From: Chloroflexota bacterium
GTDB lineage: Bacteria > Chloroflexota > Anaerolineae > 4572-78 > J111
Length of the DNA: 48,505 nt
NCBI GenBank assembly: GCA_024277275.1
Contig: JAJRVO010000336.1
Span: forward strand, 1 to 48,505
Direction: 5' to 3'
Shown: one piece after another, positions 1,990 to 45,941 of the stretch
Layout of the letters: the number at the start of each line of letters is the position of its first letter
Position numbering within the stretch: position 1 is the stretch's first letter
Position numbers and translations under genes: made by a program
Notes under the pieces: model-generated
The model's input: the letters and a program-made list of their open reading frames with translations, nothing else
The model's database searches: none
Told to the model about the DNA's origin: nothing

Positions 1990-3090
1990 TTAAACCTCAA
2001 TCCGATTTGAATACGCAAAAAAGCCGGAGAAACGTTCATCGGCCTGCAATCTTTCCAGGTGCGCTTGAACCAGAGCGCGCACTCTTCTAATATTGTCCGC
2101 ATTTTGGAATACCTCGGTTTTACCCAACAGCGATAGTTTTACTTGTGTAAACGTGGGCGCGTCGCCTTGCATCAGCGCTCTGAAAATCTCGAACGTATTA
2201 AACACCTCTTCTTGCACGGCTGTGGATAGAATATTAGCGGAAACACCGGCTTGCTGTAGAGTTTTGCGCATACATTTTTCGCCGGCGCAGTTCTGGATAT
2301 CTACCTTGTCAAGCTGGTGGTGGATGAAATCAACCGGGTCAAATGGTTCCAAAAATATTTTAATATCCTGGCCGGTTGCCAGGGCGTAGAGCAGCAACAG
2401 ACCTATTTCAGTGGCGGCAGCTTTTGAGGCGGCTTCTGACATGATGGGCAGCAACAACACATCGGCTTCATGCTTAAATTCAGTCTCTATGGATAACAAG
2501 GTGCGCGTACTCATCGCTACGCCCAGGTGGTCAATACTACCGTAAGGGGTTTTCCACGCTTCAGCAAAAGCGCCTTCAGATAAATCCTTTACAGCCTGAC
2601 CGTCTGCCCGGTAGCTTGCGGTTAGCAAATCTTTCTTTTCTTGAAATCTGTCCGTATGCTGCCGGCAATAGGGGCCTCCCGATCCGCCAAGTATTACCCG
2701 CAGCGGATAGTTTTGACCTCGCCTGATTCTTTTTGCCAAAAAATCATCAAAGTTCAAGCCTTTTTGGCCGGCTATCATTTGGTGTTTAGCCGTCTGGCAG
2801 GCTAAAATAGCCAATTCCTGTAAATCATCGCCGCGATGGATTCGCAGGAATCGGTCCAGGTGTGGATTTTTTTCCAGATTTTCCAGGGACATCTCGACCA
2901 TCATATATTGAGCAATGGCCCCCGGTTCATTGAGACTGGTCAGCAAACTGTCTTCTATGGAGACGATGACCACCTGCCCTCTCAAAGCAGCCGAGGTCAA
3001 GGCCATACCGATTTCGGCAATTGAACCCAAACTACCATTCATCAACTCATTGTTTTCCAGACGAATGATGATTACCGAGGCCGTGGCCAT
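1990..3090 (-). CDS. Hypothetical protein (366 aa); weak resemblance to nucleoside 2-deoxyribosyltransferase-like Rossmann modules
   Basis: Long ORF. Segments VIIIRLENNELMNGSLGSIAEIGMA and ADVLLLPIMSEAASKAAATEIGLL resemble the hydrophobic strand plus S/T-x-x-E-x-G pattern of that fold. There is no obvious RBS, and the ATG lies one codon after the stop of the upstream same-frame ORF. Confidence 0.5.
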   Translation of the reverse strand: MATASVIIIRLENNELMNGSLGSIAEIGMALTSAALRGQVVIVSIEDSLLTSLNEPGAIAQYMMVEMSLENLEKNPHLDRFLRIHRGDDLQELAILACQTAKHQMIAGQKGLNFDDFLAKRIRRGQNYPLRVILGGSGGPYCRQHTDRFQEKKDLLTASYRADGQAVKDLSEGAFAEAWKTPYGSIDHLGVAMSTRTLLSIETEFKHEADVLLLPIMSEAASKAAATEIGLLLLYALATGQDIKIFLEPFDPVDFIHHQLDKVDIQNCAGEKCMRKTLQQAGVSANILSTAVQEEVFNTFEIFRALMQGDAPTFTQVKLSLLGKTEVFQNADNIRRVRALVQAHLERLQADERFSGFFAYSNRIEV

Positions 3091-3093
3091 AAT

Positions 3094-3339
3094 TTAGGCT
3101 TCAATGGCCATATATGATATATCCCAACCATCAATTTGAGGATCAAAGCCAATAACTCCCATACCTTGAAAGACATCCAAAAATTTATAGGCTTTTCTCC
3201 ACATTGCTGCGGTATGGGTTGACCCATACCAGCCTACCAGGTTCAAGAGGCCGGCTGGGGTTCTCTCCATGGTGTCTGCTCGTTGATTCCACGTGGCTGG
3301 AGTGATGATTACATCAGTTTTTGTTTTGTAGGGTGCCAT
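3094..3339 (-). CDS. Hypothetical protein (81 aa); possibly the N-terminal part of the downstream 366 aa ORF
   Basis: An AGGAGA RBS lies 9 nt upstream of the ATG at 3339. The ORF ends with TAA at 3096-3094, in the same frame as ORF 1990..3090. Confidence 0.45.
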   Translation of the reverse strand: MAPYKTKTDVIITPATWNQRADTMERTPAGLLNLVGWYGSTHTAAMWRKAYKFLDVFQGMGVIGFDPQIDGWDISYMAIEA

Positions 3340-3615: not shown

Positions 3616-4617
3616 TTAGAGCGTAACGGGCTGACCAGACTCAGCGGATTGATAGAGGGCCAAAACGCTTTTCAAAAAATCTCGACTGAGGCTCAGTGGA
3701 ACAACAGGTTCAGCGTCGTCAAAAACACAAGCTTCCATCGCTTCGACTTCGTACAAATAGGGGTCGCTTTGCGGAATCCGGATTGTCTCCTCTGCCCCAT
3801 CTTTAGTAGAGAATATGATTTGGCTGCCTTGACCGGATTGGTGGGGTTTCCAGGGTTCGCTGATTTTGACCAACCCGTCGCTTCCCACAATATGAGCGCC
3901 CTCGCGGAAGGGAGAGCTAAAGCCCGATGAAATTTGAGCCACAACGCCGTTGGCAAACTTCATCTGTCCCTCAAGATAAACCTCAACTCCGGTTTCGCCC
4001 TTAACCTGGCTGGCCCAAACCTCAACCGGCGCCCCGGCTCCGGCCATTACAATAGCCAGGCTGTTGGGGTAAACGCCCACATCCCACAAAGAGCCGCCGG
4101 CCAGATCGGGGGCAAGGCGAATGTTATCTTTGTCTTCCGGGGGTAAATAGTAGGCAAACCAGCTATTAATCATTTGCAACTTGCCCAGTTGGCCGGTCTG
4201 GATCATCTCTTTGACTTTGAGCGTTTGGGGGTGGTGCAGGTACATAAAGGCTTCAAAGACGGTGACGTTGTTGGCTTTGGCTGCCGCTTCAACCCGGTCT
4301 AACTCGGCCATAGTGGGCGTAATGGGCTTCTCGCACAAAACGTGCTTACCGGCTTCGGCAGCCTTAACCGTCCACTCACAGTGGAGGGTGTTGGGCAGGG
4401 GGTTGTAAATTGCGTCTATCTCCGGGTCGGCCAGCAAGTCCTCGTAACTGCCGTGCGCTTTAGGAATACCCTTTTCTTCGGCGTAGGACTTGGCCTTTTC
4501 TATATTTCGACTCGCTACAGCCGCCAACTCGCTCAGCCCGGCCTGGCGGATTGGGTCAAGCAACGCATCATTGATTCCGGCCGTAGACAAAATTCCCCAT
4601 CGGATTTTTTCAGACAT
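3616..4617 (-). CDS. Gfo/Idh/MocA family NAD(P)-dependent oxidoreductase
   Basis: 333 aa. The N-terminus IRWGILSTAGIND is a Rossmann start, and the EKP motif (VLCEKPIT) is present. An AAAGGAGAT RBS precedes the ATG. Confidence 0.85.
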   Translation of the reverse strand: MSEKIRWGILSTAGINDALLDPIRQAGLSELAAVASRNIEKAKSYAEEKGIPKAHGSYEDLLADPEIDAIYNPLPNTLHCEWTVKAAEAGKHVLCEKPITPTMAELDRVEAAAKANNVTVFEAFMYLHHPQTLKVKEMIQTGQLGKLQMINSWFAYYLPPEDKDNIRLAPDLAGGSLWDVGVYPNSLAIVMAGAGAPVEVWASQVKGETGVEVYLEGQMKFANGVVAQISSGFSSPFREGAHIVGSDGLVKISEPWKPHQSGQGSQIIFSTKDGAEETIRIPQSDPYLYEVEAMEACVFDDAEPVVPLSLSRDFLKSVLALYQSAESGQPVTL

Positions 4618-5978
4618 AGTTGATCTCCTTTTAATAATCTGTCAGTAGTTTTGTATAACCCAATTACGTATTCTTCGTGCATTCTTTCTTCAATTTGCGA
4701 GTTGGGTTGCGCGTTTTTTCTGGCCGGCATCATCCGTTTGTCGCGGTCCAACTTACGCACTGCAATATCAACCAGATCGAAACCTGAATTTTTTCCAATT
4801 TCTCCTAGACAGATATGAGTTTCGGTGTTTAAGCCACGCATTGTAGATGTGCCAACCACAACAATAGCCGCCCTGCCGGGTTTTAAAACACGGTACATTT
4901 CGGAGAGGCATCTGGTCATTTCCGAGTAATACCGGTGTAAAACTCTGGCCTTTTTTTTGTCGCGTTTAGCAATTTTAGCCAGCGCTTGGGCCGGGTAATC
5001 CGGCATCTCCAGCAATTGGACATCAACCAACGACTCTCCGCCAATGTATTGCCGTCGCAATTGCGATAGCTCTTTAATTGGATAACCAAACCAAACTAAA
5101 GAGAATTTATGGGCGCGCATGTAATCAATGGCATTGGCCGCATAGGGCGGAGAGGTAATGATCAAGTCTACCGAATTATCTTTTAAGGTGAGAGATTGAG
5201 CGTTTCCCTCAAGTAAAATGACGTTGCCTTTCCCCGCAATCAATTCTACCAGGCTCTGGATGTTCTTTTTTAGTCGATAGCGATATTGCGCAATCGCAGA
5301 ACGTGGCGTTTTGTTGCTGACTCTATGGGGGCGTGTATGGGCCAGGTCGCGGGCCATAGACACCCCGCCTGACTTGGTGATGATAATAGCCGAAAAAGCC
5401 AGTTCCAAGAATTCACGGATAATCACATCCTGAACTTTCTCGATTTCACAAATGAGGGCCATCAGTTCAAGTTGTGTCTCTGGTAGAAACCAATAATCCA
5501 CAAACTCGCGGGTAGCGCCATCAAACCGATTGTCCAATAAAGTTGCCAGTGAAGTTGCGTCATGCTGTAAAGCGATGTTGGCTTGTTCAAGGGTCTGGTA
5601 GCCTGCATCTGTCACTTTTTGTAATGATGCTGGCGTTACTTTTGCTTTACACAACCTTAATGCTAGAGGATCAATATCGAAACCAAGTCCCCGTCTACCA
5701 AGAAGGAATGCTTCCAAAACGGTAGTGCCAGACCCCATCATAGGATCTAGCACTAAATCTTCGGGGTTAGTCAACCATTCAATGAATTTTCGGGGTAACT
5801 GGGGTGGAAACTTAGCCGGGAAAGAGTGGAAATTATGCGAGGCATAGGCGCTATTCTTGCCGTGAAAATTTAGATCACCGGCCAATGCAGACTTAAACCT
5901 GGTTCGATACGGTAAATCAGGTCGTTGTGAGACCGATGGTTTTATACTCAATGGTAATCGGAGTTGTTGGATGGTCAT
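4533..5978 (-). CDS. DNA methyltransferase (N6-adenine/N4-cytosine type); motif I precedes motif IV
   Basis: 481 aa. FPAKFPPQLPRKFI...VLDPMMGSGTTVLEA (AdoMet motif I region) lies near residue 80, and DLIITSPPYA (motif IV, SPPY) near residue 285. RVLKPGRAAIVVVG follows. The 3-prime end overlaps the oxidoreductase gene by 85 nt. Confidence 0.75.
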   Translation of the reverse strand: MTIQQLRLPLSIKPSVSQRPDLPYRTRFKSALAGDLNFHGKNSAYASHNFHSFPAKFPPQLPRKFIEWLTNPEDLVLDPMMGSGTTVLEAFLLGRRGLGFDIDPLALRLCKAKVTPASLQKVTDAGYQTLEQANIALQHDATSLATLLDNRFDGATREFVDYWFLPETQLELMALICEIEKVQDVIIREFLELAFSAIIITKSGGVSMARDLAHTRPHRVSNKTPRSAIAQYRYRLKKNIQSLVELIAGKGNVILLEGNAQSLTLKDNSVDLIITSPPYAANAIDYMRAHKFSLVWFGYPIKELSQLRRQYIGGESLVDVQLLEMPDYPAQALAKIAKRDKKKARVLHRYYSEMTRCLSEMYRVLKPGRAAIVVVGTSTMRGLNTETHICLGEIGKNSGFDLVDIAVRKLDRDKRMMPARKNAQPNSQIEERMHEEYVIGLYKTTDRLLKGDQLCLKKSDGEFCLRPESMMRCLTQSARPG

Positions 5979-10237: not shown

Positions 10238-12943
10238 CTACTCATGCTGTATAGCCTCCACAATCCTGACCCGGCTGGCCTTCCAGGCCGGGTACAGAGC
10301 CGCCCCCTGCGAGACCAGCAGGGCGATAACCACGCTAATTGCCAGCGTTTCCGGCGGAAAGTGGTATTGCAAACTATACCCGGCAATGCCTTCGATGCCC
10401 AGCAAAAAGATACGCGACAGGGCCAGCCCAAAAGCAATTCCAAAGATGCCGCCGATAAACCCCATTGTGCCGCTTTCGGCCAGAATCATACGGGCTATTT
10501 GCAGCCGGGTCATGCCCAAACTGCGCAGGCCGCCTACTTCCCGTTGTCGCTCAAAAACGTTCATCATCAAGGTGTTAATGACTCCCAGGGCGGCAATAAT
10601 CACCCCAATCATACCCAACACGTCAAACAAGGCAAATGCCTGGCCTGTAACTTCGTTAATGCGTTGTCGAAAATCTTGGGTAGTTTCAACTACAATGTGG
10701 TGGGTTTTACCGTGTCGCTCTTCCAGCAATTCTCCCGTGGCCGGAATGTCGACGCCCTCCTCTAATTTTAGAATGTATTGGTCCACCTTGCGGCGGCCAA
10801 AAAAACGCTCTACGTCGGCCCGGCTGCCGTTAATAGTAAAACCCTGGCTAGAGAAGTCGACCACCACCGCCACAATTTCAAACGGCTGATGCCCACGCCG
10901 GGTTTCAAGGGTGATGGTATCGCCTACGCCAAGGTCATAGCGGTCGGCAATGTTGGTGCTTATGATGACCGCGCCGCCCTGGGCTATGCGGGCCAACACT
11001 GCCGCCTCGTCGGTAGCAGAGTCCTCAAAAACATAGCTGCCTACCAGGGGGTGGGCTGCCGGGTCTATGCCGACCCATAAAATTCGGTCAAACTTGTCTG
11101 GGTCGCCATCCGGCGGCACGTAACGGGTGCGGTAGTACGTAACCGGGCTAACGGCGGCAACCGCCTCTTCAGCCAGCAAGCGCGTGCCAAATTCCTCTCT
11201 CATCGGTTGCGGCGAGCGCACGTACAAGTCTCCCCCCAGCGCGGTCACTACCCAGTGGTTAAGGTCGGTTTCAAAGCTGCGGGTCATAGTTTGGATACCA
11301 ATAATCATCGCAATGCCAATCATCAGGGCGGCCACCGTTAGCGATGTGCGCGCTCTGGCCCGACGCACGTTGCCGGCGCCCAGGCGTCCCTCGCCTTTGT
11401 ATAAGTAGGCAATTATGGGCCGGATAATTTTTTCTAGCGGGTTTACGGTAATTGGCACAACCAGGGTGGCCCCCATCAACAAAACAAAAATGCTGACAAA
11501 GCCGACCGGAATTTTGAGTATTTCCGGTAGTGGGACCAGGTAGATGGCTATGTAAGCCAGCAAAATAAGCAGCATCCCCGCCAGCCAGCCCGATGCCCCC
11601 AGCAGCGGTTCGGGCGGCTTGGCCGTGACTCTCAGGGCTTCCAAGGGCGACACCCGGCTGGCCTTCATGGCCGGCAGTATCGCCGAAACCAGGGTTACGC
11701 CCATCCCCACGGCCAGCGCCCAGGCCAACCCATCCGTGGGGATACTGGTCGACACAACCTCGCTGCCGCTGATGGCCCGCATGCTGCGCATTAATCCCCG
11801 AGCCATTATTAGCCCAAAGCCAACCCCCAGCCCCGACCCAATTGAGCCAAGCAGCAGGGCCTCGGTTAGCACCAGCAGCCCAATTTGCCGCCGGTACATA
11901 CCCAGCGCGCGCAGCATCCCAATCTCGCGGGTGCGCTCAACCACGGTCATGGTGAAGGTGTTATAAATGAGAAAAGCCCCAACAAAGAGGGCCAGCGCGC
12001 TAAAAAAGCTGAGACCAAGCTGGTAATTTGCCAACTGCCGGGCCACTATATCGCCCCGCGAGGCGGGATAGAGTACCGAAAAGGCGCTGCCCAATTTAAC
12101 CTGCATCTCGCTTTTGGCTTTGTCCAAAGCGGCGGGATTTTCGGCAATGGAAGGCTCTAAAATAAGGTCAATCTGGTCGATATCGCTGCTCAACTCAAAC
12201 AGGCGTTGGGCGGTGTCAAGGGGAACAAAGGCCACGGCCCCCTCGTTTTGCAGGCCCGGTCCCTGTTTGGCAATCAGCCCCACAATCTCCAGCGACTCTT
12301 TAACGTTGTTGTTGGCAAATATCTCCAAATCGTCGCCAAGCTGGTAGCCTTCTTCTACGGCGTAATCTTTAACCAGCAAAGCTCTATAAGCTCGACGTTC
12401 TTTTACGGGCAGCCATTCTCCGGCGACCAGCTTGTAGTCGCGCACAAGCCGGTCAATATCGGGTTGGATGCCTATCACCAGCAGGTCGTTGGCCCCGGAG
12501 GTCCCGGCCACACTGACCGATATCCCCCACTCGTCAGCTTGTTTGGTAGTCAGCGTGGTTCGGTTTACGGAGGGGGCCGCCGCTATCACGCCCGGCGTTC
12601 GTTCTGCTTGTTTTAGCGTGGAAACCGCAAACGCTTCCGGCACGGCGCTGCTATCGGTGATGACCAAATGCGCCTTGCCGGAGGCCTCGTTAAATACTGT
12701 CCGCACGGAGTCAAGGGTGCTATCGTTGGTGACGTTGATAGCCAGCACTACGGCCACGCCCAACATAACGCCGCCCAACGTGAGCAATGTTCGCAACCTG
12801 CGCGTAGTCATATTGCGTAAGGCTAACTTGAAGATGGCTTGTCGCGCAATGAAGGCGGCTTTAATGGAGAAAGGCGGAGCTTGTTGGCTGTCGTCTATAG
12901 CCTGATGCGGAGAGATGGGGAGTTTTTGGGTTTCTGTGCTCAT
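10238..12943 (-). CDS. ABC transporter permease, FtsX/MacB type with duplicated FtsX domains
   Basis: 901 aa. Two modules each have a TM helix, a large extracytoplasmic domain and a 3-TM FtsX-like bundle (REIGMLRALGM... and REVGGLRSLGM...). Confidence 0.8.
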   Translation of the reverse strand: MSTETQKLPISPHQAIDDSQQAPPFSIKAAFIARQAIFKLALRNMTTRRLRTLLTLGGVMLGVAVVLAINVTNDSTLDSVRTVFNEASGKAHLVITDSSAVPEAFAVSTLKQAERTPGVIAAAPSVNRTTLTTKQADEWGISVSVAGTSGANDLLVIGIQPDIDRLVRDYKLVAGEWLPVKERRAYRALLVKDYAVEEGYQLGDDLEIFANNNVKESLEIVGLIAKQGPGLQNEGAVAFVPLDTAQRLFELSSDIDQIDLILEPSIAENPAALDKAKSEMQVKLGSAFSVLYPASRGDIVARQLANYQLGLSFFSALALFVGAFLIYNTFTMTVVERTREIGMLRALGMYRRQIGLLVLTEALLLGSIGSGLGVGFGLIMARGLMRSMRAISGSEVVSTSIPTDGLAWALAVGMGVTLVSAILPAMKASRVSPLEALRVTAKPPEPLLGASGWLAGMLLILLAYIAIYLVPLPEILKIPVGFVSIFVLLMGATLVVPITVNPLEKIIRPIIAYLYKGEGRLGAGNVRRARARTSLTVAALMIGIAMIIGIQTMTRSFETDLNHWVVTALGGDLYVRSPQPMREEFGTRLLAEEAVAAVSPVTYYRTRYVPPDGDPDKFDRILWVGIDPAAHPLVGSYVFEDSATDEAAVLARIAQGGAVIISTNIADRYDLGVGDTITLETRRGHQPFEIVAVVVDFSSQGFTINGSRADVERFFGRRKVDQYILKLEEGVDIPATGELLEERHGKTHHIVVETTQDFRQRINEVTGQAFALFDVLGMIGVIIAALGVINTLMMNVFERQREVGGLRSLGMTRLQIARMILAESGTMGFIGGIFGIAFGLALSRIFLLGIEGIAGYSLQYHFPPETLAISVVIALLVSQGAALYPAWKASRVRIVEAIQHE

Positions 12944-13160: not shown

Positions 13161-16100
13161 GATTTGGATATATAGGTGGCAACTTGAGCTAGCTAATACT
13201 TCTCGGTTAAAATCGCAATGCCCTCCCAGTCTGGGGGGACGCCGTACTCAATAAAGTTCTCTACTCGACGTAGATATAGTTGCGACGCTTTATCTTCTGG
13301 ATTAACGGTTAAGGCTTTTTGGAAATACTCTTTTGCCTGGGCAAATTCCTGGCTGTGGTAGTGAAGAAGCCCTCGTTCAAAATCGGTTTGGGTCTGGAGC
13401 TTAAGTTCCCTGATTTCTTCCGGCTCGCCATCCAGAATTTCAAAAACTGACACTGCTTCCTCTTTGCCTTTTACTTTTACTTTGTCAAGAAAGCGGAAAT
13501 TATAACTTATCGGATTATTAAGGCTGAACATCATTTCTCCGCTGACAATAATGGATGACCCGTAAACTTTGGTTAACCCTTCCAGCCGGGCCGCCAGGTT
13601 GACAGCGTCTGATATTACCGTGCCTTCCATCCTTTCCGCTTCGCCAATAGTGCCTAACATAACCCGGCCTGTATGTAACCCTACGCCAATTGTAATGGGC
13701 TGATATCCGGAGTTAATCCGGTCAACATTGTAAATGGCTACGGCTTGCTGCATGGCAATGGCCGTTTTAATTGCGTCGTTGGTTTGACCGGGAAACAGGG
13801 CCATAATGGCATCGCCCATGTACTTGTCGATAAAGCCGTTATTGTCTCGAATAATGGGGCTGACCCGTCTAAGGTATGAGTTGATAAAGTTGAAGTTTTC
13901 TTGCGGGGTCATCTGTTAGGACAAGTTGGTAAAAGAGCGGATGTCGGAAAAAAGAACCGTCATCTCTTGCTGTATTTGGTCGCCTAATTTAACCTGCATA
14001 ATGCTGTCTTTGTTGAGCAGGTTCAGAATTTCGGGGGGCACAAAACGGCTGTAGGCTTTGGTCAACTCTACTTGATGGGCATAGAAACGGGCGTTCTCAA
14101 TAGAAATAGCGGCTTGAGAAGATAACAGGTTCAGCACTTCCAAGCGGTCGGGGGTAAAAGCCCCGGTGGTGAGGTTGTTTTCCAGGTAGAGGATGCCAAT
14201 GAGTTTGCCCTGGTTTAGCAGCGATATACACAATACCGATTTGGGTTGGGCAGCCACAACATACCTGTCGTGAGTAAATTGACCCTCGTGGGTCGCGTCG
14301 TTTAAAACCACGTTTTGCCGGCTGTGAATGACGTAATTAATAACGGCTCCCGGCAATATGGGCCTTCGCCCGTAGGCCGCCACCGTAAGCGGGATGGCTT
14401 GCAGGACAGTGACGTCATCCTTGCTGGCAGCCCCCGAGGCCTCAATTGACCAGGCTTCGCTTTCCTCCAGGAGCAAATACCCTATTTGCGCTCCTGCATT
14501 TTCAATAACAATTTCCATCATCTTTGATAGTAAGGTATTCAACACAATCTCGCTAGAGATAATCTGCGAGGCTTTGATGACGCTGGTTAAATCCAGGGCG
14601 CTTAGAGCGCCCGATGTGCTGTGAATGGTGGGCGTAAGGGGTATTGTGGATTTGGCCTCGAGACGCCGTGGCCGGATTTTGGCAAATAACTCCGGGTAAT
14701 GTGTCTCTAATTGCTTGATTTTACCGGAGGCTCCCCAACGCAAGTAAGCATAGTGAGCCTTATGCAGGTAAACGTGGGCTATCTCTGCTTGCCCTTTAGT
14801 TAGATAAAATCTTCCCGCCAGTTCGTAGGCCAGGGCTTCTTCATTTAAATATTGGTTTTCTTGAGCCAGAGCAATGGCCTGATCATAATATTCTCTGGCC
14901 GCCCCATCGGCGCCCAGAGCGCGGGCGTATTCGGCTTCTACCAGATAGAATTTGTGCAGGTGATTTACAGGGGCATGGTTGGCCCATTCCTTTAGCTTTT
15001 GCTGATTAGCGGTTACTTTGTCCAGTATAGGCTCTTGCTCAATTTGTTTCTCTTCAGGGGACTCTATGAGCAAAGCCAGATGAGCCAACGAGTCGTAAAA
15101 ATGGAAAACAGGCACAGATAGCATCGCGGTTACATCGTCCAAATGCTTTGCCGCTGCGGTTGCGTTTTTAACCGCTTGCGGGTATTCCTGAAACAGGTAA
15201 CAGAGGATAAGCCGGTTGAAATGTATGTCGAAAGCTATGTTGTTAGTTGTCTCATCAACCTGCAACGAATCGGGTTTTTCCTCATCGTGTAGGTTATTGC
15301 CTAAGCGGTACGGATGTTCAGTGTCCTCCATTAAATTTAAGACAACCTGCCGATAGATTTCATTGATTCGCAGGACTCGTTCTTGTTTAAGCTGTTTAAT
15401 CGACTCGCTGTGCAAGGCCATCTCCGGGGCAAGCTCGACCAGTTCCCGACCGGCCAGATAGGAATGAAGGCCATAGACAAAGATAGAACGAGCGGCATAT
15501 TCCAGGTCGCCGGTTTCCAGGGCGCTGCGGTATGCTTCTAACAGCGGGCTTAAGCTTGCTCTTACGGGTTTCTTCCAGTGGCTAACAAAGGTGTTGAGGC
15601 CAAACAGCATCTTGGCTTTAAGTTGTTGGGCATTTAACTGTTTTAGCAGCCTTAAAGCCGTTTGCCCAAATTGATGGCCGGCATCAATGTCGCCAATGCG
15701 CCCGCAGAGAATTAAACCATAAGTGACATACGCCAGGGTAGACTCGGGCGCATTGCCGTATTTTACTGAGAAGGCAACCATTTTAAATACAATTAGCGGT
15801 AACAGTCCGGGAATACCAAAAGAGGCCGCCGAGGAGACAATCGACAGGATTCGCATTGCGGCTAATCTGTAAGGGTCTGTCATTTCCGGCAGGGCTACTA
15901 AATCCTCCGGCTGTCTTCCGGCCAAAGCCAACTCTATTTCTTGTAGAGCCAGAGCAATATTCTCTTGACTCGGCTCCCGTGGAAAGCGTACCGCTAACAT
16001 TCTTAGTACGGGTAAGGCTGTGTCTATCACGTCTTGTAATTGATCCTGGGCAATGTAAGCCAGCATTTTTACTTCATAGACCTTTACTTTGTCCAGCAAG

Positions 16101-17637
16101 GTCTTGGCTTGTTGCAGCACAATTTCTGCAAAGCGCTCCATTTGCTCAAAGTCGGCGCATAGATAGGCTGTTTCCATTGCTTCTATATATAACAGCAACG
16201 ACAGGTTATATTGTCGCTCCCAACTGCCTGCTTCTTCACTGCCCTTGATGAGGGGGGATTGTGAGAGGTTTAAAAGTTCAATGCCGATATTCAGGTAATT
16301 TAATGCGGGTTGGTATGCCGCCGATGCTTTAGCTCTTTGACCCGCCAGCAGATTTAATTCTGCCAGTTCGTCCCATTCTGATTGCTCAACGCATATTACC
16401 CGGCCTAGATTTAGCTGGTTGACCAGATCAAATATTCGGTTTGCCCGCTTGTCTGGTAGCGTATGCCGTAGCAGCAGTTGCCCCACCTGCCAGTGGACAA
16501 TCTGTTTGTCTGTGTCGGAAATAAGCGAGTAAATGGCTTGCTGAACCCGGTCGTGGGCAAACTTGTATTCTGCCATAACCACGCTTTGATCATCTAATTC
16601 CGGGAATGGGTACGTTCTGTTTAAAGGCAGGATTAAGCATTCTGTGGTTGCCTCCCACAAATCAGCGGCTACATTTGCCGGGGGCTTTTGTGAGACAACT
16701 GCCAGAGTCTCTAAATCAAATTGATGGCCGATACAAGCGGCCAGTTTTAATGCTTCTTGGGCGTCTGGCGGTAACTTTTGCACTTTGGCGGCCATCAACT
16801 CAACCACATTATCTGTAATTTCCCGGGTTTGAATTTGCGCCAAATCCCATTGCCAGCTTCCGCGCTGATAGTCAAAGCTAATGAGCTTCTCAACATAGAG
16901 CGATTTCAAAAACTCGCCTATAAAGAAGGGATTGCCCCCCGTTTTGTCCAGCACTAATTCTGCCAGGGGAGCGACCTGTTCCGGCTGGTCATGGAGTGTG
17001 TCGGCCACTAGCCGGCTAACGTGGGATAAGGTCAACGGTGATAATTCGATGTTCTTAATTATTGCGCCGGTCTTTTTGATATCATCCAGTGTTAACAGCA
17101 ACGGATGAAGCCCACTCACTTCGTTATCTCGATAGGCTCCTATTAAAAACAGGCAGATGTTGTCGGAAGCAGTGGTCATTAACCGCTCAATTAACTTCAG
17201 CGATGCTTCGTCTGCCCACTGTAAATCATCAAGAAAAATGACCAGGGGGTGTTTGGGCCGGGCAAAGACCTTGATGAAGTTTTGAAACGCTAAATTAAAA
17301 CGATTTTGGGCCTCTACCGGCCTTAATTCGGGCGCTGGGGGTTGTGGGCCGATGATTAATTCAATTTCGGGAATGACCTCAAGAATTACCTGCCCATTTG
17401 GTCCAAGTGCGGCCAGTAGTTTTTGTTGCCAGGCGGCAATTTGGGTTTCGTTTTCGGTTAACAATTGCTGCGCCAGCGAGTGAAAGGCCTGAATAAGCGA
17501 AACATAAGGAACATTGCGCTGAAACTGGTCAAACTTGCCGGAGATAAAATAGCCGCCTTGACGGGCTACTTGCTTGTGCAATTCGTGAACCAGGGCCGAT
17601 TTGCCAATGCCTACGTATCCGGTTACCAAAGCCATGT

Positions 17638-17711
17638 CGATTTTCGATTTTCGATTTTCGATTTTGGATTGAGAGGAAACTTCCCTCCCTTTGGGGGGGA
17701 TTGAGGGGGGG
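17638..17711. repeat. (CGATTTT)x4 heptamer run plus a G-rich GATTGAG(A/G)GG repeat, inside the kinase/STAND CDS
   Basis: cgattttcgattttcgattttcgattttggattgagagg...gggggggattgaggggggg, translated as PPSIPPKGREVSSQSKIENRKSKID. Confidence 0.85.
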
Positions 17712-18250
17712 CTAATTTGCTCAAAAGCTGTTGACAAGATTTCAAGCTCTTGCTCTCGTCCGTACAACTTTTGCGGAATTTGTAACCTGTCAGAGATATC
17801 TTGTTGACCTAGTGGAAAAAGGTCGACTCGTTCCAGGGTTTGCCATTGCTGTAAACACGCTTCTAAATCTGCTTTTAGTCCATACGCCGATTGGTAACGC
17901 TCTTCTGCATTTTTGGACATCAGCTTCATTACTATGTCCGAGAGGGCGGGGGGCAGGGCGGGTTTGACCTTATGTGGCGATGTGGGCTGTTTGGCGATGT
18001 GGCTGTGTACCAGTTCCAGCGGGTCGTTGCTTTCAAACGGCAGTTGTCCGGTTAGTAGTTCATAAAAGGTCACGCCCAGCGAATAAAAATCTGCCCGATA
18101 ATCCACCGCCCGGTTCATTCGTCCGGTTTGCTCCGGTGAAATGTAGGCCAGCGTGCCTTTCAATACGCTTGGAGTATGCAGGGTTGGATTCTCGTGCGAG
18201 AATACCGTGGAAATGCCGAAGTCAATGATTTTGACCGGCCACTGCTGATT

Positions 18251-18329
18251 TACGATTTTAGATTTATGATTTGCGATTTCTGATGGTTGGTCCAAACCGG
18301 AAATCGTAAATCCAAAATCTGAAATCGTG
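18251..18329. repeat. Heptamer-periodic palindrome (NNGATTT)x4 / loop / (AAATCNN)x4, inside the kinase catalytic domain CDS
   Basis: tacgattttagatttatgatttgcgatttc ... ggaaatcgtaaatccaaaatctgaaatcgtg, translated in frame as DTISDFGFTISGLDQPSEIANHKSKIV. Confidence 0.9.
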
Positions 18330-19211
18330 TCTGGGGGAATAATTACAATATTTGACGGGTTAAGGTCTTGGTGGATAACGTATCGCTGATGAATTTGCCC
18401 CACAATTTCTGTGACTCTGATGGTCAGGGATAAAAAATCAGCCAGGTTCAATTTGCCGGCTAATCCTAACTGCGCCAGAGATTTTCCGCCAAAATCCTCC
18501 AGCACTATCACCCACCGCTGCTGGTTTTTTTCTAAAGCTAAAGCTTTAACCACGCCTTCCAGGTCTAAGCTGCGGATGATTTCGTACTCGGTTTTAAGCC
18601 GGGCAATCTGCTCTGGCGAGGGGTAGGTCGCTTTTAAGGTTTTTAAAATAACCGGCTGGTTATCCGCCCGCTGGCGCCCGCGATAGATCAACGAGTTAGC
18701 GCTTTCGTGGATTAGATCGCCAAACTGATAACCTGAGGTTGTGATCATTGTTGCTCTGCTCATTGCTCACTCTAAAAAGACAAACCTTGCTCCTGGTGTA
18801 TAACAATTCCAAACAAAACCCAGACCTGATAGATTTTTGACATAATCTTAGCAAGTTGCTGTATTGCTATTGTAAATTGTGTTGAAATGGCCGGTTTTTT
18901 GGAAACCTGTCAGGTCTCATAGCCATGTTTGGAATTGTTGCCTATTGTATCACAAAAATCGACCAAAGACATTTTGGATAGCGCTAAACAAGCAGTGAGG
19001 GGTTCGGTGTCAGAAAATGAGTCTTTAACCAAAATAAAAACCCCGCCAATGCGGAGCTTTTGAATGAGAATAATGTAGCGTTTTAGGCTTTTACATCGAT
19101 AAAAAATTATCGAGCAAAGGTGCAGGGTGGTAAAGCTGCAAATTACAGAACCTGCTACCCTGCAACCTTGCCACCTTGTTTTCCAAGCGAAGTCTTGGAA
19201 AAATTGGATTC

Positions 19212-22578: not shown

Positions 22579-22643
22579 TAGACAGGTGGGGTAAAGTGGG
22601 TTATAATGGGGTACATTGTGGGGTAAAGTGGGGTAAAGTGGGA
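22579..22643 (+). promoter_or_regulatory. dcw promoter with an MraZ-box-like array of GTGGG repeats at about 10-bp phasing
   Basis: TAGACA (22579-84), a 17-nt spacer and TATAAT (22602-07) form the candidate promoter. GTGGG(G) repeats start at 22586, 22596, 22618, 22628 and 22638, and ATGGGG starts at 22606. Confidence 0.6.
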
Positions 22644-22711
22644 ATAGAACGCTTGTTCTAAACCTTTTAGTGGGAGAAAACCCCCCACTCTATCCAAAGG
22701 TCCCTTAGCTT

Positions 22712-23149
22712 ATGTTTTTAGGCGAATTTGCGCATACAGTTGATGATAAAGGGCGATTGACAATTCCGGCCAAATTTCGGGATGAGCTTGAGAGCGGAAT
22801 TGTCATTACTCGCGGCTTGGATGGCTGCCTGTGGGCCTATCCTCGCTACGAGTGGGAACAACTGGCGCAGAAGATTGGCGCTATGCCCACCACCAACCAG
22901 GCTGCTCGCAATTTTGCTCGCTTTATGTTCTCCAGCGCTTTCGACTCCATTCCCGACCGTCAAGGGCGGGTTCTTCTCCCTCAAAATTTGCGTTAACACG
23001 CCGGTATTCAAAGTGAAACCACGGTTATCGGGGTCATGAATCGAGTAGAGATTTGGAACCCAACCAAGTGGAACGATGTCTTCTCTAAAGTTAAGGAAGA
23101 CCCTGAGGCCGTTGTGGCCCAGTTGCACGAGTTGGGGATTGACATTTAG
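22712..23149 (+). pseudogene. mraZ: Transcriptional regulator MraZ, interrupted by an in-frame TAA at 22994-22996
   Basis: MFLGEFAHTVDDKGRLTIPAKFR...RVLLPQNLR is followed by TAA and then, in the same frame, HAGIQSETTVIGVMNRVEIWNPTKW...LGIDI and a TAG stop at 23147-49. The total is 145 codons, the normal MraZ length with two SpoVT/AbrB-like halves. Confidence 0.85.
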
Positions 23150-26735: not shown

Positions 26736-28226
26736 TTGAGTAGCTTAACTCTGGCCGACGTCATCGAAGGCTTAACCGGAAATCGAATACAAGCCGCGTC
26801 AATTATTAGTGATGTTGTTATTGACTCGCGCCAGGCCCAGGCAGGTTCGCTCTTTGTGGCCTTACCCGGCGAGCAAACGGATGGTCACCAATTTGTTGAG
26901 CAAGCGTTTAAGCAAGGAGCCATAGCGGCCATTACACATCAACCTGTGGCCTCTCTGTACGACCAGGGGCAAACCATCGAGGTTGGTCGAACTGACCCGG
27001 AACAGTGGGCGTCAATTGTCGACAACTTGCCAATTTGCATTCAGGTTGAAGATAGCTTAAAGGGGTTGCAGCAGTTGGCCGCGTTTTGGCGCAACAAATT
27101 TAATCCACGCATAGTAGGGATTACCGGCAGCGTGGGTAAGAGTACAACCAAGGAACTGGTTTGGGCGATATTGTCTACCCGATTTAAGACGCTCAAAAGC
27201 GAGGGCAATTACAACAATGAAATCGGGTTGCCCTTAACCTTGCTCAACCTAAATGCTAACCATGAGTATGTTGTTCTGGAAATGGGTATGTACGCCATCG
27301 GAGAAATAGAGCTTTTGTGCAAAATAGCCCGCCCGCAAATGGGTGTAGTAACTAATGTAGGGCCGGTTCACCTGGAGCGGGTAGGGACAATGGAAAGAAT
27401 TGTTCAAGCCAAGTCAGAATTGGTACAGGCTCTTCCGGCCTCTTCTACCTCTGAACCGGACACAGGCGGCGTGGCTATTCTTAATTATGATGACCCGCTG
27501 GTTTTGCCAATGGCGGCTAAAACTCAAGCTCGCGTTTTAACTTATGGGTTATCGCCCAAAGCAGATTTGTGGGCCGGCGATGTGGTTAGCGCCGGACTGG
27601 AAGGCATTCGGTTTGTGTTTCATCACGGGGATGAAACTATTCACGCTCGTATCCCTTTGCTGGGGCGACACAGCGTTCACAACGCTTTACGCTCTGCGCT
27701 GGTTGGCCTGGAAGAGGGTTTGGCCTGGGAAGAGATTATTGCCGGGTTGCAAGCGTTGCCCAGTTCTTCTCAGCTACGTTTGGTGGCGACGCCCGGCCCC
27801 AATGGGTCTACGGTGTTGGACGACACCTATAATGCCAGCCCGGCTTCAACAATTGCGGCCCTTAACTTGCTTGACGACCTGGTCGCAACCAAAAAAATTG
27901 CGGTGTTACGCGATATGATGGAGTTGGGCAGTTATGAGGAAGAAGGCCACCGCAAAGTTGGCTGTCGAGCCGCCGGCATCGTTGATTTGTTAGTGGTTAT
28001 TGGCCCCAGGTCAAAAATTGCCGCCGAAGAGGCCCGGGCTTGCGGCTTGAACCCATCCTCTATTCTGGAACTTGAAAACAATGAGGCGGCAGCCGATTAT
28101 CTTACAGGAATATTGGAACCGGAGAATATTGTTTTAATTAAAGGGTCTCTATCCCGGAAAATGAGTGAAATTGTGTCGGCTTTGACTGTAACAAGTAGCG
28201 GGCCAAAGAAACAAAAAGCAATCTGA
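26736..28226 (+). CDS. murF: UDP-N-acetylmuramoyl-tripeptide--D-alanyl-D-alanine ligase
   Basis: 496 aa with a TTG start. It has DSRQAQAGSLFVALPGEQTDGHQF, GITGSVGKSTTKE and NYNNEIGLPLTLL (MurF-type). Confidence 0.85.
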   Translation: MSSLTLADVIEGLTGNRIQAASIISDVVIDSRQAQAGSLFVALPGEQTDGHQFVEQAFKQGAIAAITHQPVASLYDQGQTIEVGRTDPEQWASIVDNLPICIQVEDSLKGLQQLAAFWRNKFNPRIVGITGSVGKSTTKELVWAILSTRFKTLKSEGNYNNEIGLPLTLLNLNANHEYVVLEMGMYAIGEIELLCKIARPQMGVVTNVGPVHLERVGTMERIVQAKSELVQALPASSTSEPDTGGVAILNYDDPLVLPMAAKTQARVLTYGLSPKADLWAGDVVSAGLEGIRFVFHHGDETIHARIPLLGRHSVHNALRSALVGLEEGLAWEEIIAGLQALPSSSQLRLVATPGPNGSTVLDDTYNASPASTIAALNLLDDLVATKKIAVLRDMMELGSYEEEGHRKVGCRAAGIVDLLVVIGPRSKIAAEEARACGLNPSSILELENNEAAADYLTGILEPENIVLIKGSLSRKMSEIVSALTVTSSGPKKQKAI

Positions 28227-40618: not shown

Positions 40619-40866
40619 AGGGAGTGAGTAGTAGAGTATAGGAAGTAGTAGGGAGTAACTATTTTTCCTTACTCCTTACTACTATACTCAGCACGGTCAC
40701 AAAGTAACATTCTGAAAGCCAGAGAATAGGACACAGATTTTCGCAGATAAACACAGATTATGGTAAAAAACTAAACAAAAATCTGTAAAATCTGTGTTCA
40801 TCTGTGTCCCATAAAAATGTTACTTTATGGCCGTTGGCAGTATACTTCCTATTACTTACTTCCTAA
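40619..40866. repeat. Compound nested palindrome of about 250 bp between ftsQ and ftsA
   Basis: Layer 1 is the hairpin 40619-40692 (GGAGTAG-type heptamers). Layer 2 arms are ACGGTCACAAAGTAACATT (40693-711) and AATGTTACTTTATGGCCGT (40816-834). Layer 3 arms are GGACACAGATTTTCGCAGATAAACACAGATT (40729-759) and AATCTGTAAAATCTGTGTTCATCTGTGTCC (40780-809). An outer GGAAGTA-type arm lies at 40838-866. Confidence 0.85.
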
Positions 40867-41128
40867 GCGCCTAATTTTAAGGAAAAACACAAGATGTTGT
40901 GGTATAAACTATTGCAAAATACTATATCTTGTGGTACACTACAATTTACATCTTACCGGCTTTATGAAAATGCAAGTTGGTGCGGCTTTAAAAATTGTGG
41001 GCAAGATGCTGGAGGCAAAAGGCAAAAAAGAAAAAGTTTGGACCTTTGCTCCCTCCATTCTCTTACTGCCGCCGGAGTATCCATTTTGAATAACTTGCAG
41101 CAGGCACACAAAAGGGGAGGAGGCTAGT

Positions 41129-42352
41129 GTGGATCGCACTGTTGTTGCCTTAGACATAGGCACTACAAAAATCTGCACGCTAGTTGCCGAAGTCGGCCCT
41201 CCCCCGGAAGAGAGCTTGCGTGTTGTAGGTGTGGGTACTGTGCCTTCAAGGGGAATCCGTAAAGGGGTGGTGGTAAATGTCAACGAAGTTGCAGCCGCCA
41301 TTGTCGACTCGGTTCGCCTGGCGGAGCGTACCTCTGGATATGAAATTGCCAGCGCCTATGTTGGGTTAGCCGGAGCGCACATTAACGCCGTAAATAGCCG
41401 GGGCGTGGTAGCCATTAGCCGAGGCGAACGGGGTATCCGAACTGTAGATGTTGAAAGGGCTTTGGAATCTGCACGGGCCATCGATATTCCCCACAATCGG
41501 GAGATTCTGCATATTATCCCGCGCGGCTTTACCGTAGATGGCGACGACGGGGTACGCGACCCGGTTGGGATGCAAGGCTACCGGCTGGAGGTTGAAGCCC
41601 ATATTGTTACCGGAGCTACTTCGTCCATTAAAAACCTTATCAGGTGCGTGCAGAGTTGTGGGGTTCAAATTGACGCTTTGGTTTTGGAACCGTTGGCCTC
41701 TGGCGAAGCGGTTTTAACCGACATTTAGCGCGAGATGGGGGTAGTACTGGTTGATATCGGCGGCGGCACTACAGACATCGCCATATTTATAGAAGGCGCC
41801 ATTTGGCACGCCGTTGTTTTACCCACCGGCGGCGAACAATTGACCAACGATGTGGCCGTAGGCTTACGCACCCCCTACAACACGGCAGAAGATATTAAGA
41901 TTAAATACGGGCACGCCCTGCCCCAGGCCGTAATGCTTGAAGAGATTGTTAAGGCCGAAGTGTTTGGCGAAGAAGGTCAACAGCAAATCCCTCGCCAGTT
42001 TTTGGCAGAAATTGTGGGAGCGCGCGCCGAAGAGATTTTTGAGCTGGTCTTAAAAGAGATTAAGCGGAGCGGGTACGATGGACTTTTGCCGGCAGGCATT
42101 GTTTTGTGCGGAGGCACCGCCGAATTACCCGGTATCCGCGATTTGGCCCGCGATGTTATGGGGCTACCGGCCCGTATCGGCGAGCCGCAAAATTTGCGCG
42201 GGTTGGTCGACACGCTACACAGCCCGGCTTTTGCTACCACCGTGGGGTTATTAGAATGGGGCGTAATGCACGACTTGCCCAAACCGGTTCAGCAATCCGC
42301 AAACCACAGTTTGAAGGTGCCGACTTGGTTAAAAGCGTTTTTGCCGGGGTAA
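41129..42352 (+). pseudogene. ftsA: Cell division protein FtsA, interrupted by an in-frame TAG at 41726-41728
   Basis: A GTG start is preceded by GGGGAGGAGG. It reads VALDIGTTKICTLVAE...LEPLASGEAVLTDI, then TAG, then in the same frame REMGVVLVDIGGGTTDIAIF...VLCGGTAELPGI. Together these make one actin-fold FtsA of about 407 codons. Confidence 0.9.
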
Positions 42353-43783: not shown

Positions 43784-43853
43784 CCTATTATTGAGAATTC
43801 CTTCCTACGGCCTGAGTGTGGCAGGTAGAAAACCCACACACCGCATCCCCACT

Positions 43854-43889
43854 GCGCCCCTGGCATTCCCCAGCCAGGGGCGCTTTTTT
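43854..43889 (+). terminator. Rho-independent terminator after ftsZ
   Basis: A perfect 10-bp stem GCGCCCCTGG / CCAGGGGCGC with a 10-nt loop is followed by TTTTTT. Confidence 0.7.
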
Positions 43890-43947
43890 GTGGGTATTAA
43901 TTGGATAGTCTCTCGCTTGAATGTTGAAAGCTGTTGATTGTTATTTT

Positions 43948-44015
43948 GAACCGCCAAGACGCCAAGTGCGCCAAGAAAAAAAGAAAATTTGGCGTTCTTG
44001 GTGTTCTTGGCGGTT
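43948..44015. repeat. Periodic palindrome (CGCCAAG)n
   Basis: gaaccgccaagacgccaagtgcgccaag ... ttggcgttcttggtgttcttggcggtt. Confidence 0.9.
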
Positions 44016-44061
44016 AATTTTTCTAGTTTGCAGTCACCAACACTTAACAGGGGGATTATCA

Positions 44062-45941
44062 TTAATTGGAAGGAGCAATAACATCTGAAGCGGTGACTGA
44101 AGTTGGCACCGATTCTACGGCGGGCGTGGCAACCCCAGCCGGTTCAAACTCAACTTCGCGGATGGTCAGGGTATCGTAGTTAACGTGGGCCATAGATTCG
44201 TCAAACGTTTCGGTAAAAAAGCCAACCTCGCCGCCGGCGTAATCAGCATCGCTTACCTGGATGACCGGCTGCCCATTGATGTGGAAGATAAAATCAGAGC
44301 CGTTGGTATCCACGCGGAGGGTGTCTGCGTTGTTCTCGCTAAGAGCGTGTTTCTTAAAGACCGCAGAGGTTTTCTGCGAGACATTTTTAAGCGAATTTGC
44401 CCCGGTTATGAACCTGACTTACAGTTAAAATCGGCTTCGGAAACCTCTGCGGTCTGGTCTACACGATTTAAGAAACACGCTCTAAGACCCTGGATAGAGT
44501 CGTCAGCGCCCTCTGCCAGAACTTCTAACCCGGCGGCGGAACTTTTAAGCGCGTACCAGTTTTTGCTTCGGGGCGAGACGGTGAAGGCGTAAAATTGCTC
44601 GCCTGTGCGGCGAACAACCAGGCCATAGCGGAAGTCGCCGATATCGGTGCCGGTTTTGGCTACAAAAATATTGCTTTCAACGGTAACGTTGTCAAAACCC
44701 GGACCTCGGGAAATTAACCCTCTCTCGCCGGGGGCGTGAACTTCAACGTGGTAAAAATCGGGAGGATGGTAGCCAAAAAGGCCGCTTTCTGCTTCCAGCT
44801 CCGGCCAACCGCTGGTGGGGTTGGTGAAGTTGTCCTCAAACAACACCGTTTCAGTCTCGACAACCGTAACCTCATCTGCCGCGCAGCGAACGCCGGATGT
44901 AGCAGACATTGTAGGCACGCTTGGATCGCCCTGAAGGCGGTAGGCCATATCCTGGACAAAACCGTGCGTGCCGCCGCGCAAAACCCGATTGCCCTCTTCA
45001 ACCGGAGCATAGGGGTCTCCCACCCACTCCCAAACGTTGCCGGCCATATCAAAAACGCCAAAGGGGCTGCGGTTGGCAACGATGCTGCCCACGGCATATG
45101 TGCCGGCCCGGGGGAGTTCAACATCGCGCTCGGTATCTCCCCAGGGGTATGCCAGGCCATGACGACCTCGGGCCGCAGCCTCCCATTCGGCTTCGGTGGG
45201 CAGGCGTTTTCCAGCCCATTGGCAATAAGCGGTAGCTATGTCCCAGGTAATGCCCTCAACCGGGTGGTTTTCTTTTTCGGCCGGAATTGTTCCTGTGGAC
45301 CAGCTTACAGGCGGCTCACGGTCGCCTTCAGCCAAAAATTCCGCATATTGAGCGTTGGTCGCCTCGTATTGATCAATCCAAAACTCGGTCAGTTCAATTT
45401 GCTGTGTTGGGGCGTACTCTGTGCCGGTTACATCCGAGCCGATAATATACGAGTCGGCATGGATTTTAACCATCTGTTTAGACAAGGGCAGGTTAACTGA
45501 GGCCAGGGCTTGCTCTCCCGGCAACGATGGAGATTGCACAAACCGAGAAACCGCATACACGGCCCCCAGGCCAATTAAAAATATAAAAATGGCAACCCCA
45601 ATTCCAACCGACCACAGGAGCGTGTTATTTTTCTTGACAGGTTGGACCGCTTGCATCACGGCAGAGGTGGGTTCAGGCGTTGACGCAATTGGCGTTGACC
45701 TTATCCCTGATGGGCCGGTATCTTGCCGGCTATTTACTCGCGTTTTCTTTTTAGGCGACGGAATAGTCATTTCTTGGAGACTTCGCTTGGCGTCTCTCAA
45801 CCCCGTGGCCATATAGGCAGCAGTTTGGTAACGGTCGGCTGGAGATTTTGCCAGCGCTTTTTGAATGACTTCAACTAATTTATCGGGGGCGTCGCTTTCC
45901 AGGTTTTTTATAGCGACACAGTTTGCAAAGCCCCATAAATG
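44062..45941 (-). pseudogene. Decayed Ser/Thr kinase / FGE-sulfatase (SUMF1-like) gene: 5-prime truncated and disrupted near the 3-prime end by a 138-bp MITE
   Basis: The frame upstream of the ATG at 45812 encodes AIKNLESDAPDKLVEVIQKALAKSPADRYQTAAYMATGL, the C-terminal lobe of a protein kinase domain only, bounded by TGA at 45944-42. A TM helix follows, then the FGE domain (FWIDQYEATNAQY, HPVEGITWD, RLPTEAEWE, NVWEWV, RVLRGG). The C-terminal beta-rich domain is split between ORFs 44406..45812 and 44062..44313, which lie in different frames. Confidence 0.75.
44344..44481. mobile_element. 138-bp MITE with roughly 35-bp imperfect terminal inverted repeats and a 5-bp target-site duplication (CTAAG)
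   Basis: CTAAG occurs at 44339-43 and at 44482-86. The left end AGCGTGTTTCTTAAAGACCGCAGAGGTTT pairs with the right end AAACCTCTGCGGTCT(ggtctacacga)TTTAAGAAACACGCT. Removing the element plus one CTAAG joins ...DDSIQGL to SENNADTLRVDTNGSDFIFHINGQ... in frame. Confidence 0.75.

Follow-up and report, generated by a model that had tools for sequence, protein, structure and literature searches.

Four internal stop codons at glutamate positions in a Chloroflexota contig, one of them within mraZ

In a 48,505-nt contig of a Chloroflexota bacterium of the Anaerolineae (JAJRVO010000336.1, analysed over its full length and called the window below), the mraZ gene is interrupted by an in-frame TAA, and three further genes, ftsA among them, each carry one internal stop in the same frame. 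This cluster of four same-frame stops is real as a feature of the deposited sequence, and it is unusual. Our analysis adds two observations: all four stops stand at glutamate positions and are reached by a sense-strand G>T change, and three of the four are followed, 2-3 codons on, by an ancestral in-frame ATG. The observation itself is correct and statistically unusual, and its likeliest explanations are the ordinary ones, nonsense mutation and artefact; neither the restriction to glutamate nor the nearby AUG codons are explained by simple noise. The reading that we favour, while giving it somewhat less than an even chance, is that the stops exist in the organism and arose very recently, by G>T nonsense substitution.

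The gene at the centre of this work and its stop are as follows.

22712-23149, plus strand: mraZ, first gene of the division and cell wall (dcw) cluster, 145 codons, interrupted at codon 95 (from its translation and 120 homologs).
22994-22996, plus strand: internal TAA of mraZ, GAA>TAA (G>T), within the second MraZ repeat (from the translation, the homolog column and Pfam profile positions).

Translated in a single frame, mraZ comprises 145 codons with one internal TAA, at codon 95, and thus lacks the uninterrupted full-length frame expected of an MraZ gene. The 120 homologs are 143-145 amino acids long, the best of them 85% identical to the joined sequence, and the gene is placed directly upstream of rsmH at the head of the dcw cluster, as expected for MraZ. 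The Pfam profile PF02381 matches the N-terminal fragment in two stretches and the C-terminal fragment over profile positions 25-60; the TAA cuts the second of the two tandem MraZ/UPF0040 repeats. A first-pass annotation, made from the sequence alone, had described mraZ as one frame of canonical length with two MraZ-like halves, separated by a stop that a single base change from a Gln or Glu codon would explain. Our results bear out each part of this description apart from the glutamine: the homologs have E, D or T in the stop column, the closest ones have E, and the ancestral codon is GAA. We therefore treat the mraZ TAA, tentatively and at a little under even confidence, as an ordinary nonsense codon of the standard bacterial code that arose by one G>T change in GAA, its cause being weighed together with that of the other three stops.

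On this reading mraZ would give a 94-residue product with the first repeat, the start of the second and both D-x-x-x-R motifs, and without the last 50 residues. The next in-frame ATG lies 14 codons past the TAA and there is no nearer in-frame start codon; a search for a bypass signal at this stop found no nearby restart codon, downstream structure or special context. Beyond the stop, codon 128 (23093-23095) is AAG for lysine where 119 of the 120 homologs have glutamate, and this E128K change is the sole missense deviation at near-invariant columns across the four interrupted genes. Decay of the mraZ C terminus was suggested by E128K together with a drop in identity (p ~0.05), and was rejected because the profile likelihood of this part is ordinary.

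Upstream of mraZ, one further element was recorded.

22579-22660, plus strand: promoter and leader of mraZ, all elements intact (from the sequence and the layout in 10 relatives).

It comprises a -35-like TAGACA, a TATAAT, five TGGGR boxes spaced 10-12 bp apart and the perfect palindrome TAGAAC-GCTT-GTTCTA, a layout conserved in 10 related Anaerolineae loci. The TGGGR boxes resemble MraZ operators and are putative MraZ boxes. The palindrome has the form GAAC-N4-GTTC, as does the LexA 'Cheo box' found in Gram-positives and Chloroflexi; it is a putative LexA box, and the layout hints at SOS control of the dcw operon.

The other three interrupted genes, with their stops and the in-frame ATG codons that follow them, are listed here.

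41129-42352, plus strand: ftsA, 407 codons, interrupted at codon 200 (from the translation and 120 homologs).
41726-41728, plus strand: internal TAG of ftsA, at a position that is Glu in 120 of 120 homologs, with GAG as the relatives' codon.
41735-41737, plus strand: candidate reinitiation ATG of ftsA, 3 codons past the stop, Met in 120 of 120 homologs.
13193-18763, minus strand: gene for a protein with Ser/Thr kinase, AAA_16, GAF, class III cyclase and TPR domains, 1,856 codons (from Pfam and homologs).
13916-13918, minus strand: internal TAA of this cyclase gene, Glu in 150 of 150 homologs, with an in-frame ATG at 13910-13912, 2 codons on.
1990-3339, minus strand: conserved 449-codon gene without clear annotation, interrupted at codon 82 (from homologs).
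3094-3096, minus strand: internal TAA of the 449-codon gene, Glu in 61 of 69 homologs, with an in-frame ATG at 3088-3090, 2 codons on.

The joined FtsA is 407 amino acids long, equal in length to the 120 homologs, and its stop falls exactly between the two PF14450 halves, one half lying on each fragment. Pfam domain limits were used to place this split, as the AlphaFold model of FtsA was unusable for the purpose (predicted local distance difference test (pLDDT) score, 35). The 205-amino-acid open reading frame (ORF) that begins at the ATG at 41735 is a called gene in the public record. In the cyclase gene, the stop lies about 27 positions into the cyclase domain, and homologs of ~1,750-1,850 amino acids align across it as a single stretch. 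The first-pass annotation had assigned the same pattern of interruption to ftsA and the cyclase gene, correctly except that the stop in ftsA is TAG rather than TAA, and had called a pair of ORFs of 81 and 366 amino acids 'possibly' interrupted. That pair is certainly one gene: homologs of 441-457 amino acids span 98-100% of the joined 449 amino acids, and the 366-amino-acid ORF starting at 3088-3090 is entry P0241 of a public collection. In the AlphaFold model of a homolog (P0242; pLDDT 87) the stop site is predicted to lie within a helix.

The 449-codon gene belongs to a conserved Anaerolineae family without clear annotation, a few members of which match PF15891, and a fold search with the same homolog model returned weak TIR-domain-like matches only. 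It lies directly upstream of, and in the same frame as, a gene for a PfkB-family kinase.

The four stops were also recovered by a scan in which every stop codon of the window was scored for same-frame coding potential on both of its sides, independently of start codons. They rank 1st, 2nd, 3rd and 6th, the remaining high scores belonging to gene junctions or to frames that do not code; no further internal stop was found in the window. Nor were frameshifts seen in any of its 34 genes. The load thus stands at one lesion in each of 4 of the 34 genes (~12%), at a coding density of ~86%. Among related genomes, none of 383 orthologue matches (at least 55% identity) contains an internal stop, as against 2 in the same ~19 genes of the window, and this agrees with the earlier judgement that four stops in 48 kb are far above expectation. 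All four are present in the contig deposited at NCBI, where the fragments are recorded as separate gene products. The source is an uncultured, Caldilineaceae-like member of the Anaerolineae. Its proteins share 85-91% identity with their nearest public counterparts, and among species-representative genomes the best match in MraZ is 81%. No second assembly with the same sequences was found by exact-protein look-ups or a scan of species-representative genomes, and the protein clusters have one member each. A metagenome scan with Ddl, a poor choice of query, yielded distant D-Ala ligase loci only (at most 65% identity).

A single interrupted orthologue was seen among the relatives. In L138 (an ENA contig labelled '5x', from long reads; 11264-12440), ftsZ is broken into pieces of 162 and 209 amino acids that lie in different frames. 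This break is a frameshift, and it shows how error-driven breaks look in Anaerolineae relatives. Just upstream of ftsA in the window, a 90-amino-acid ORF (40817-41089, plus strand) lies in the same frame as ftsA and scored as coding in the scan. It is a separate small gene rather than a fifth interruption; most of the relatives examined have an ORF of 54-88 amino acids at the matching place.

All four stops align with glutamate codons, by GAA>TAA in three cases and GAG>TAG in one, and each requires a sense-strand G>T change; viewed on the plus strand, two of the four are G>T and two are C>A. The window contains 785 glutamate codons (GAA:GAG, 451:334), 4 of which (0.5%) are hit. Given the codon usage of the window, glutamate makes up 16% of the nonsense targets under a uniform mutation model, under which four of four at glutamate has p = 7e-4, and 10% under a model with transition bias (p = 9e-5). 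When only G:C>T:A changes are allowed, its share rises to 55% and p to 0.09. Because four of four is improbable under the uniform and transition-biased models, either the process is specific for G:C>T:A or the identity of the amino acid matters. The stops show no significant preference for invariant glutamates, 44% of the other glutamates in the four genes being equally conserved.

No relaxation of constraint is seen in the sequence past the stops. Against the closest relative (dS >1), the ratio of nonsynonymous to synonymous substitution rates (dN/dS) of ftsA falls from 0.039 ahead of the stop to 0.029 beyond it. In three genes the two sides of the stop are equally similar to homologs, the downstream parts of mraZ, ftsA and the 449-codon gene have ordinary profile likelihoods, and in deep alignments of the four genes 383 of 386 near-invariant columns are kept, the deviations being the ftsA stop, the cyclase stop and E128K of MraZ. 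Both halves of the interrupted genes are under equal purifying selection.

The window was also compared with its relatives for other substitutions. A process restricted to G:C>T:A is expected to produce 10.6 missense changes per nonsense change, or ~42 on the contig, and a uniform process ~76. Private missense changes number 18 at 1,845 otherwise-invariant columns; they are mostly conservative transitions and fall within the range of the relatives. At 2,105 conserved columns, missense changes of the G:C>T:A type amount to 2 plus one ambiguous case, compared with ~6 extra expected. There is no clear excess of such changes over the background of the relatives, at low power: the test is weak (p ~0.05-0.15), its rate resting on four events. 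The two clean cases are both in murE (~27681-27695), where the motif HSVHTALRAA, invariant in 23 relatives, reads HSVHNALRSA through T>N by C>A and A>S by G>T, 4 codons apart. They may be natural, as they recreate N..NALAA, which we take to be the usual Mur-ligase motif.

An in-frame ATG follows the stop within 2-3 codons in three of the four genes, the context reading stop-R-E-M in ftsA, stop-Q-M in the cyclase gene and stop-I-M in the 449-codon gene. In these three genes, therefore, a start lies within a few nucleotides of the stop, whereas in mraZ it is 14 codons off. An ATG within 3 codons is found at 51 of the 785 glutamate codons of the window (6.5%), which makes three or more of four improbable (P = 1e-3), although this statistic was chosen post hoc and the p-value is optimistic. 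The methionine is present in 120 of 120 FtsA homologs, in the closest cyclase homologs shown and in 28 of 69 members of the 449-amino-acid family; compensatory evolution of these codons was accordingly rejected, the methionines being ancestral. Restart at an internal methionine codon after an artificial internal stop is documented in bacteria (Huber et al., 2019; PMC6728339), and short stop-to-start junctions are natural in the window itself, for example between rsmH and ftsL (TAA-CATT-ATG).

If the four stops are real and very recent, they could stem from a burst of G:C>T:A mutation, of the 8-oxoguanine type, in a bottlenecked population. MraZ would be cut after residue 94, would lose most of its second repeat and would probably be inactive. 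In model bacteria MraZ is a dispensable regulator, so the cell could do without it. In ftsA, the cyclase gene and the 449-codon gene, the ribosome may terminate and then restart at the ancestral in-frame AUG 2-3 codons on, and each of the three proteins would then be made as two pieces, which could explain why these nonsense changes survive. We infer the presence of the T alleles in the DNA, the reinitiation and the working of the split products alike. Several observations argue for real substitutions. Real mutations that had passed through selection should lie near an ATG, whereas errors have no reason to do so. The sequence is not generally error-rich, because it has no frameshifts, has only the 18 private missense changes at 1,845 columns and keeps 383 of 386 near-invariant residues. 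Furthermore, in RefSeq genomes compared in pairs that are nearly 100% identical, incongruence affects only ~8% of internal-stop pseudogenes (PMC11017572), so that most internal stops in that set are reproducible.

Several points weigh against this reading. The T alleles are known from a consensus sequence, and their presence in the DNA is presumed. With four recent nonsense changes among 34 genes, one of them in ftsA, the whole genome would have hundreds, a load not easily squared with a viable free-living cell. For each nonsense change, a G:C>T:A process should leave ~10 missense changes, and the observed number is about background, and the substitution spectrum of the lineage, judged from amino-acid changes, is not rich in G>T (20% as against 6-31% in relatives). 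The argument from ATG proximity carries the post hoc character noted above, and no Shine-Dalgarno-like motif precedes the restart ATGs when the sequence is read by eye. The function of the pieces is doubtful as well: the cyclase would be split inside its domain and, on the model of its homolog, the 449-amino-acid protein inside a helix, with an invariant glutamate lost. For the substitutions to be real, a burst of mutation biased towards G>T must have occurred recently, and the cell must tolerate proteins that are split partly inside domains.

None of the explanations comes free of difficulties. The strongest alternative is a sequencing or assembly artefact, in which the organism has GAA or GAG at all four sites and the consensus shows T there through a G>T (C>A) error. 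Such an error could have come from oxidised template, from channel cross-talk or phasing, or from amplifying very few template molecules. This explanation is possible, and we consider it unlikely rather than remote. Low coverage, read quality or the assembler is often what creates the internal-stop pseudogenes of public assemblies, and low read quality increases internal stops more than frameshifts (PMC11017572). A single substitution class, two G>T and two C>A on the plus strand, fits one chemical or technical process; the perfect conservation past the stops is what truly intact genes would show; and there is no other public assembly to contradict an error, the protein clusters having one member each. 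However, an error process should also have left the ~42 (G:C>T:A-only) or ~76 (uniform) missense changes, ~6 or more of them as extra changes at the 2,105 conserved columns, where at most 2-3 are seen (p ~0.05-0.15), and errors should ignore downstream ATGs, which three of the four stops have (p = 1e-3, post hoc). The lack of indels in 34 genes speaks against long-read error, of which the frameshifted ftsZ in the 5x contig L138 gives the contrasting picture, and short-read coverage so low as to give an error rate of 0.1-0.2% would be unlikely to yield a 48.5-kb contig. A motif-specific systematic error, for example at a methylation site, was rejected: no k-mer is common to the four sites, and the window has many GAA-N3-ATG and YGAAC sites that are intact. 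Sequencing error had been among the candidates of the first-pass annotation. Its generic, random form is weakened, as is unselected decay, because there are no frameshifts and no clear missense excess; a G>T-specific artefact remains.

Suppression is a less probable explanation, and we regard it as improbable. Here a glutamate-charged tRNA with a UUA anticodon, encoded by the organism or by a prophage in it, would with some efficiency read UAA and also, through wobble, UAG, both of which would still act as terminators. A G>T change at a glutamate codon would then have almost no effect on the protein, and such changes could build up. The stops occur only at glutamate, twice at invariant positions, as this model predicts and as unbiased mutation would hardly produce (p = 7e-4 to 9e-5). 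Three UAA, one UAG and no UGA fit an ochre-type anticodon and the GAA:GAG ratio of 451:334, and nonsense without missense, with full conservation downstream, would need no further explanation. However, only 4 of the 785 glutamate codons are affected, none of the 383 orthologue matches in relatives has an internal stop, and the proximity of the ATGs would have to be coincidence. No tRNA gene was found within the window and no suppressor tRNA among the tRNAs found in 37 related loci, results that say nothing of the remaining genome of the organism; a literature search for stop recoding or suppressor tRNAs in Chloroflexi found nothing relevant. UAA is read by both release factors, and glutamyl-tRNA synthetase uses the anticodon as an identity element, both of which count against suppression. 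No decoding of UAA or UAG as glutamate is known in bacteria.

The terminators show no adaptation to suppression. The 34 genes end in TAA (16), TAG (11) or TGA (7), so that TAA and TAG end 27 of 34, and the proportions (47/32/21%) resemble those of the relatives' orthologues (48/24/27%). We found no shift of terminators to TGA and no obvious tandem back-up stops in the window, where the following in-frame stop lies at ordinary distances. In its most far-reaching form, suppression would be an incipient dual-meaning state, in which UAA and UAG are partly decoded as glutamate by a UUA-anticodon tRNA while still serving as terminators. We attach little credence to it. Such a state is not known in bacteria, and the four stops would be its first visible footprints, a claim for which our expectation is just as low.

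Long-standing pseudogenisation in a decaying genome, with mraZ, ftsA and the others long dead, was another candidate of the earlier annotation and has the ~12% of disabled genes in its favour, a density like that of host-restricted, genome-reducing bacteria; it is excluded, or at best very improbable, because dN/dS of ftsA is low on both sides of the stop and near-invariant residues are retained, and it is further opposed by undiminished identity past the stops in three genes, ordinary profile likelihoods, one lesion per gene, the lack of frameshifts, the intact mraZ promoter and the coding density of ~86%.

Full reassignment of UAA and UAG to an amino acid, or programmed context-dependent readthrough, is scarcely credible. 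In-frame stops at one amino acid in conserved genes are the classical signature of reassignment (PMC8629427), and all four stops fall at glutamate, but they are four events only, and a reassigned codon should be rare as a terminator. Reassignment is excluded because TAA, the commonest terminator, and TAG, the second, end 27 of the 34 genes and are used as in relatives. Programmed readthrough had also been put forward in the first-pass annotation, and no signal supports it: the +4 bases of the internal stops (C, C, C and A) are like those of normal terminators, no stimulatory RNA structure was found in the 100 nt from each stop when compared with shuffled sequence (fold z-scores 0.37, 0.11, -0.72 and -1.90), and the sites have no common motif.

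The interrupted genes lie in an otherwise orderly setting. The dcw cluster runs mraZ, rsmH, ftsL, pbp, murE, mraY, murD, ftsW, murG, two unannotated ORFs, murC, murB, ddl, ftsQ, ftsA and ftsZ, and is flanked by genes for sugar-nucleotide enzymes, an ABC transporter, a MacB-type permease and the 1,856-codon kinase-AAA-GAF-cyclase. Beyond ftsZ, three genes on the minus strand (43805-45812), one of which encodes an FGE-sulfatase-domain protein, separate it from a 546-amino-acid ORF. As several relatives have an ORF of 522-556 amino acids, without a Pfam match, directly after ftsZ, this segment looks like a lineage-specific insertion. Elsewhere, a DNA methyltransferase gene (4533-5978, minus strand) runs for 85 nt into the start of the next gene downstream, which encodes a GFO/IDH/MocA oxidoreductase. 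The methyltransferase matches PF01555 in two stretches and has its motif I close to the N terminus.

What these stops mean depends on their origin. If they are artefacts, an unnoticed process of G>T error has affected this contig, and probably the entire assembly, and breaks the calls of core division genes, so that the record ought to carry a flag. If they are real, a free-living member of the Chloroflexota has premature stops in ~12% of its genes, including ftsA, and no other damage. The remaining options would then be very recent hypermutation, tolerated split genes made by stop and restart, or low-level decoding of UAA and UAG as glutamate. The latter two, if true, bear on the onset of gene fission and of stop-codon reassignment, for both of which few natural intermediates are known.

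Compared with known systems, the window shares features with several. Mutators for G:C>T:A arise by loss of MutY or MutM, and oxidative damage gives G:C>T:A artefacts in sequencing. All four changes are transversions of this class, as in both of these; the differences are that the spectrum of the lineage is not enriched for G:C>T:A and that no missense excess was seen with the stops. Decoding of UAA and UAG as glutamate occurs in some eukaryotes, namely Blastocrithidia and peritrich ciliates. As in these, and as with ochre suppressors, UAA and UAG stand at glutamate positions of conserved proteins while UAA still serves as a terminator. The window differs from such systems in that no tRNA was found, only 0.5% of glutamate codons are involved, the terminators are unadapted and no bacterial precedent is known. 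Classical cases of termination followed by reinitiation are the restarts in lacI and T4 rIIB. Like the internal-stop calls in public assemblies (Cooley and Wright, 2024; PMC11017572), the stops described here are single, in the same frame and in otherwise intact conserved genes, several to an assembly, and their cause may be biological or technical. Unlike those calls, they reach 4 per 48.5 kb (~82 per Mb, as against roughly 1 per Mb), all replace glutamate by G>T, and come with neither frameshifts nor a detectable excess of other substitutions. In relation to reinitiation systems, our cases, known from sequence alone, differ in having no clear Shine-Dalgarno motif, in being split inside domains twice and, for mraZ, in lacking a nearby restart. 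They are alike in that both halves of the genes are conserved, that ftsA is split between the two halves of a fold, and that, as in reinitiation after nonsense codons (Huber et al., 2019; PMC6728339), an AUG lies 3-8 nt past the stop in three of the four genes.

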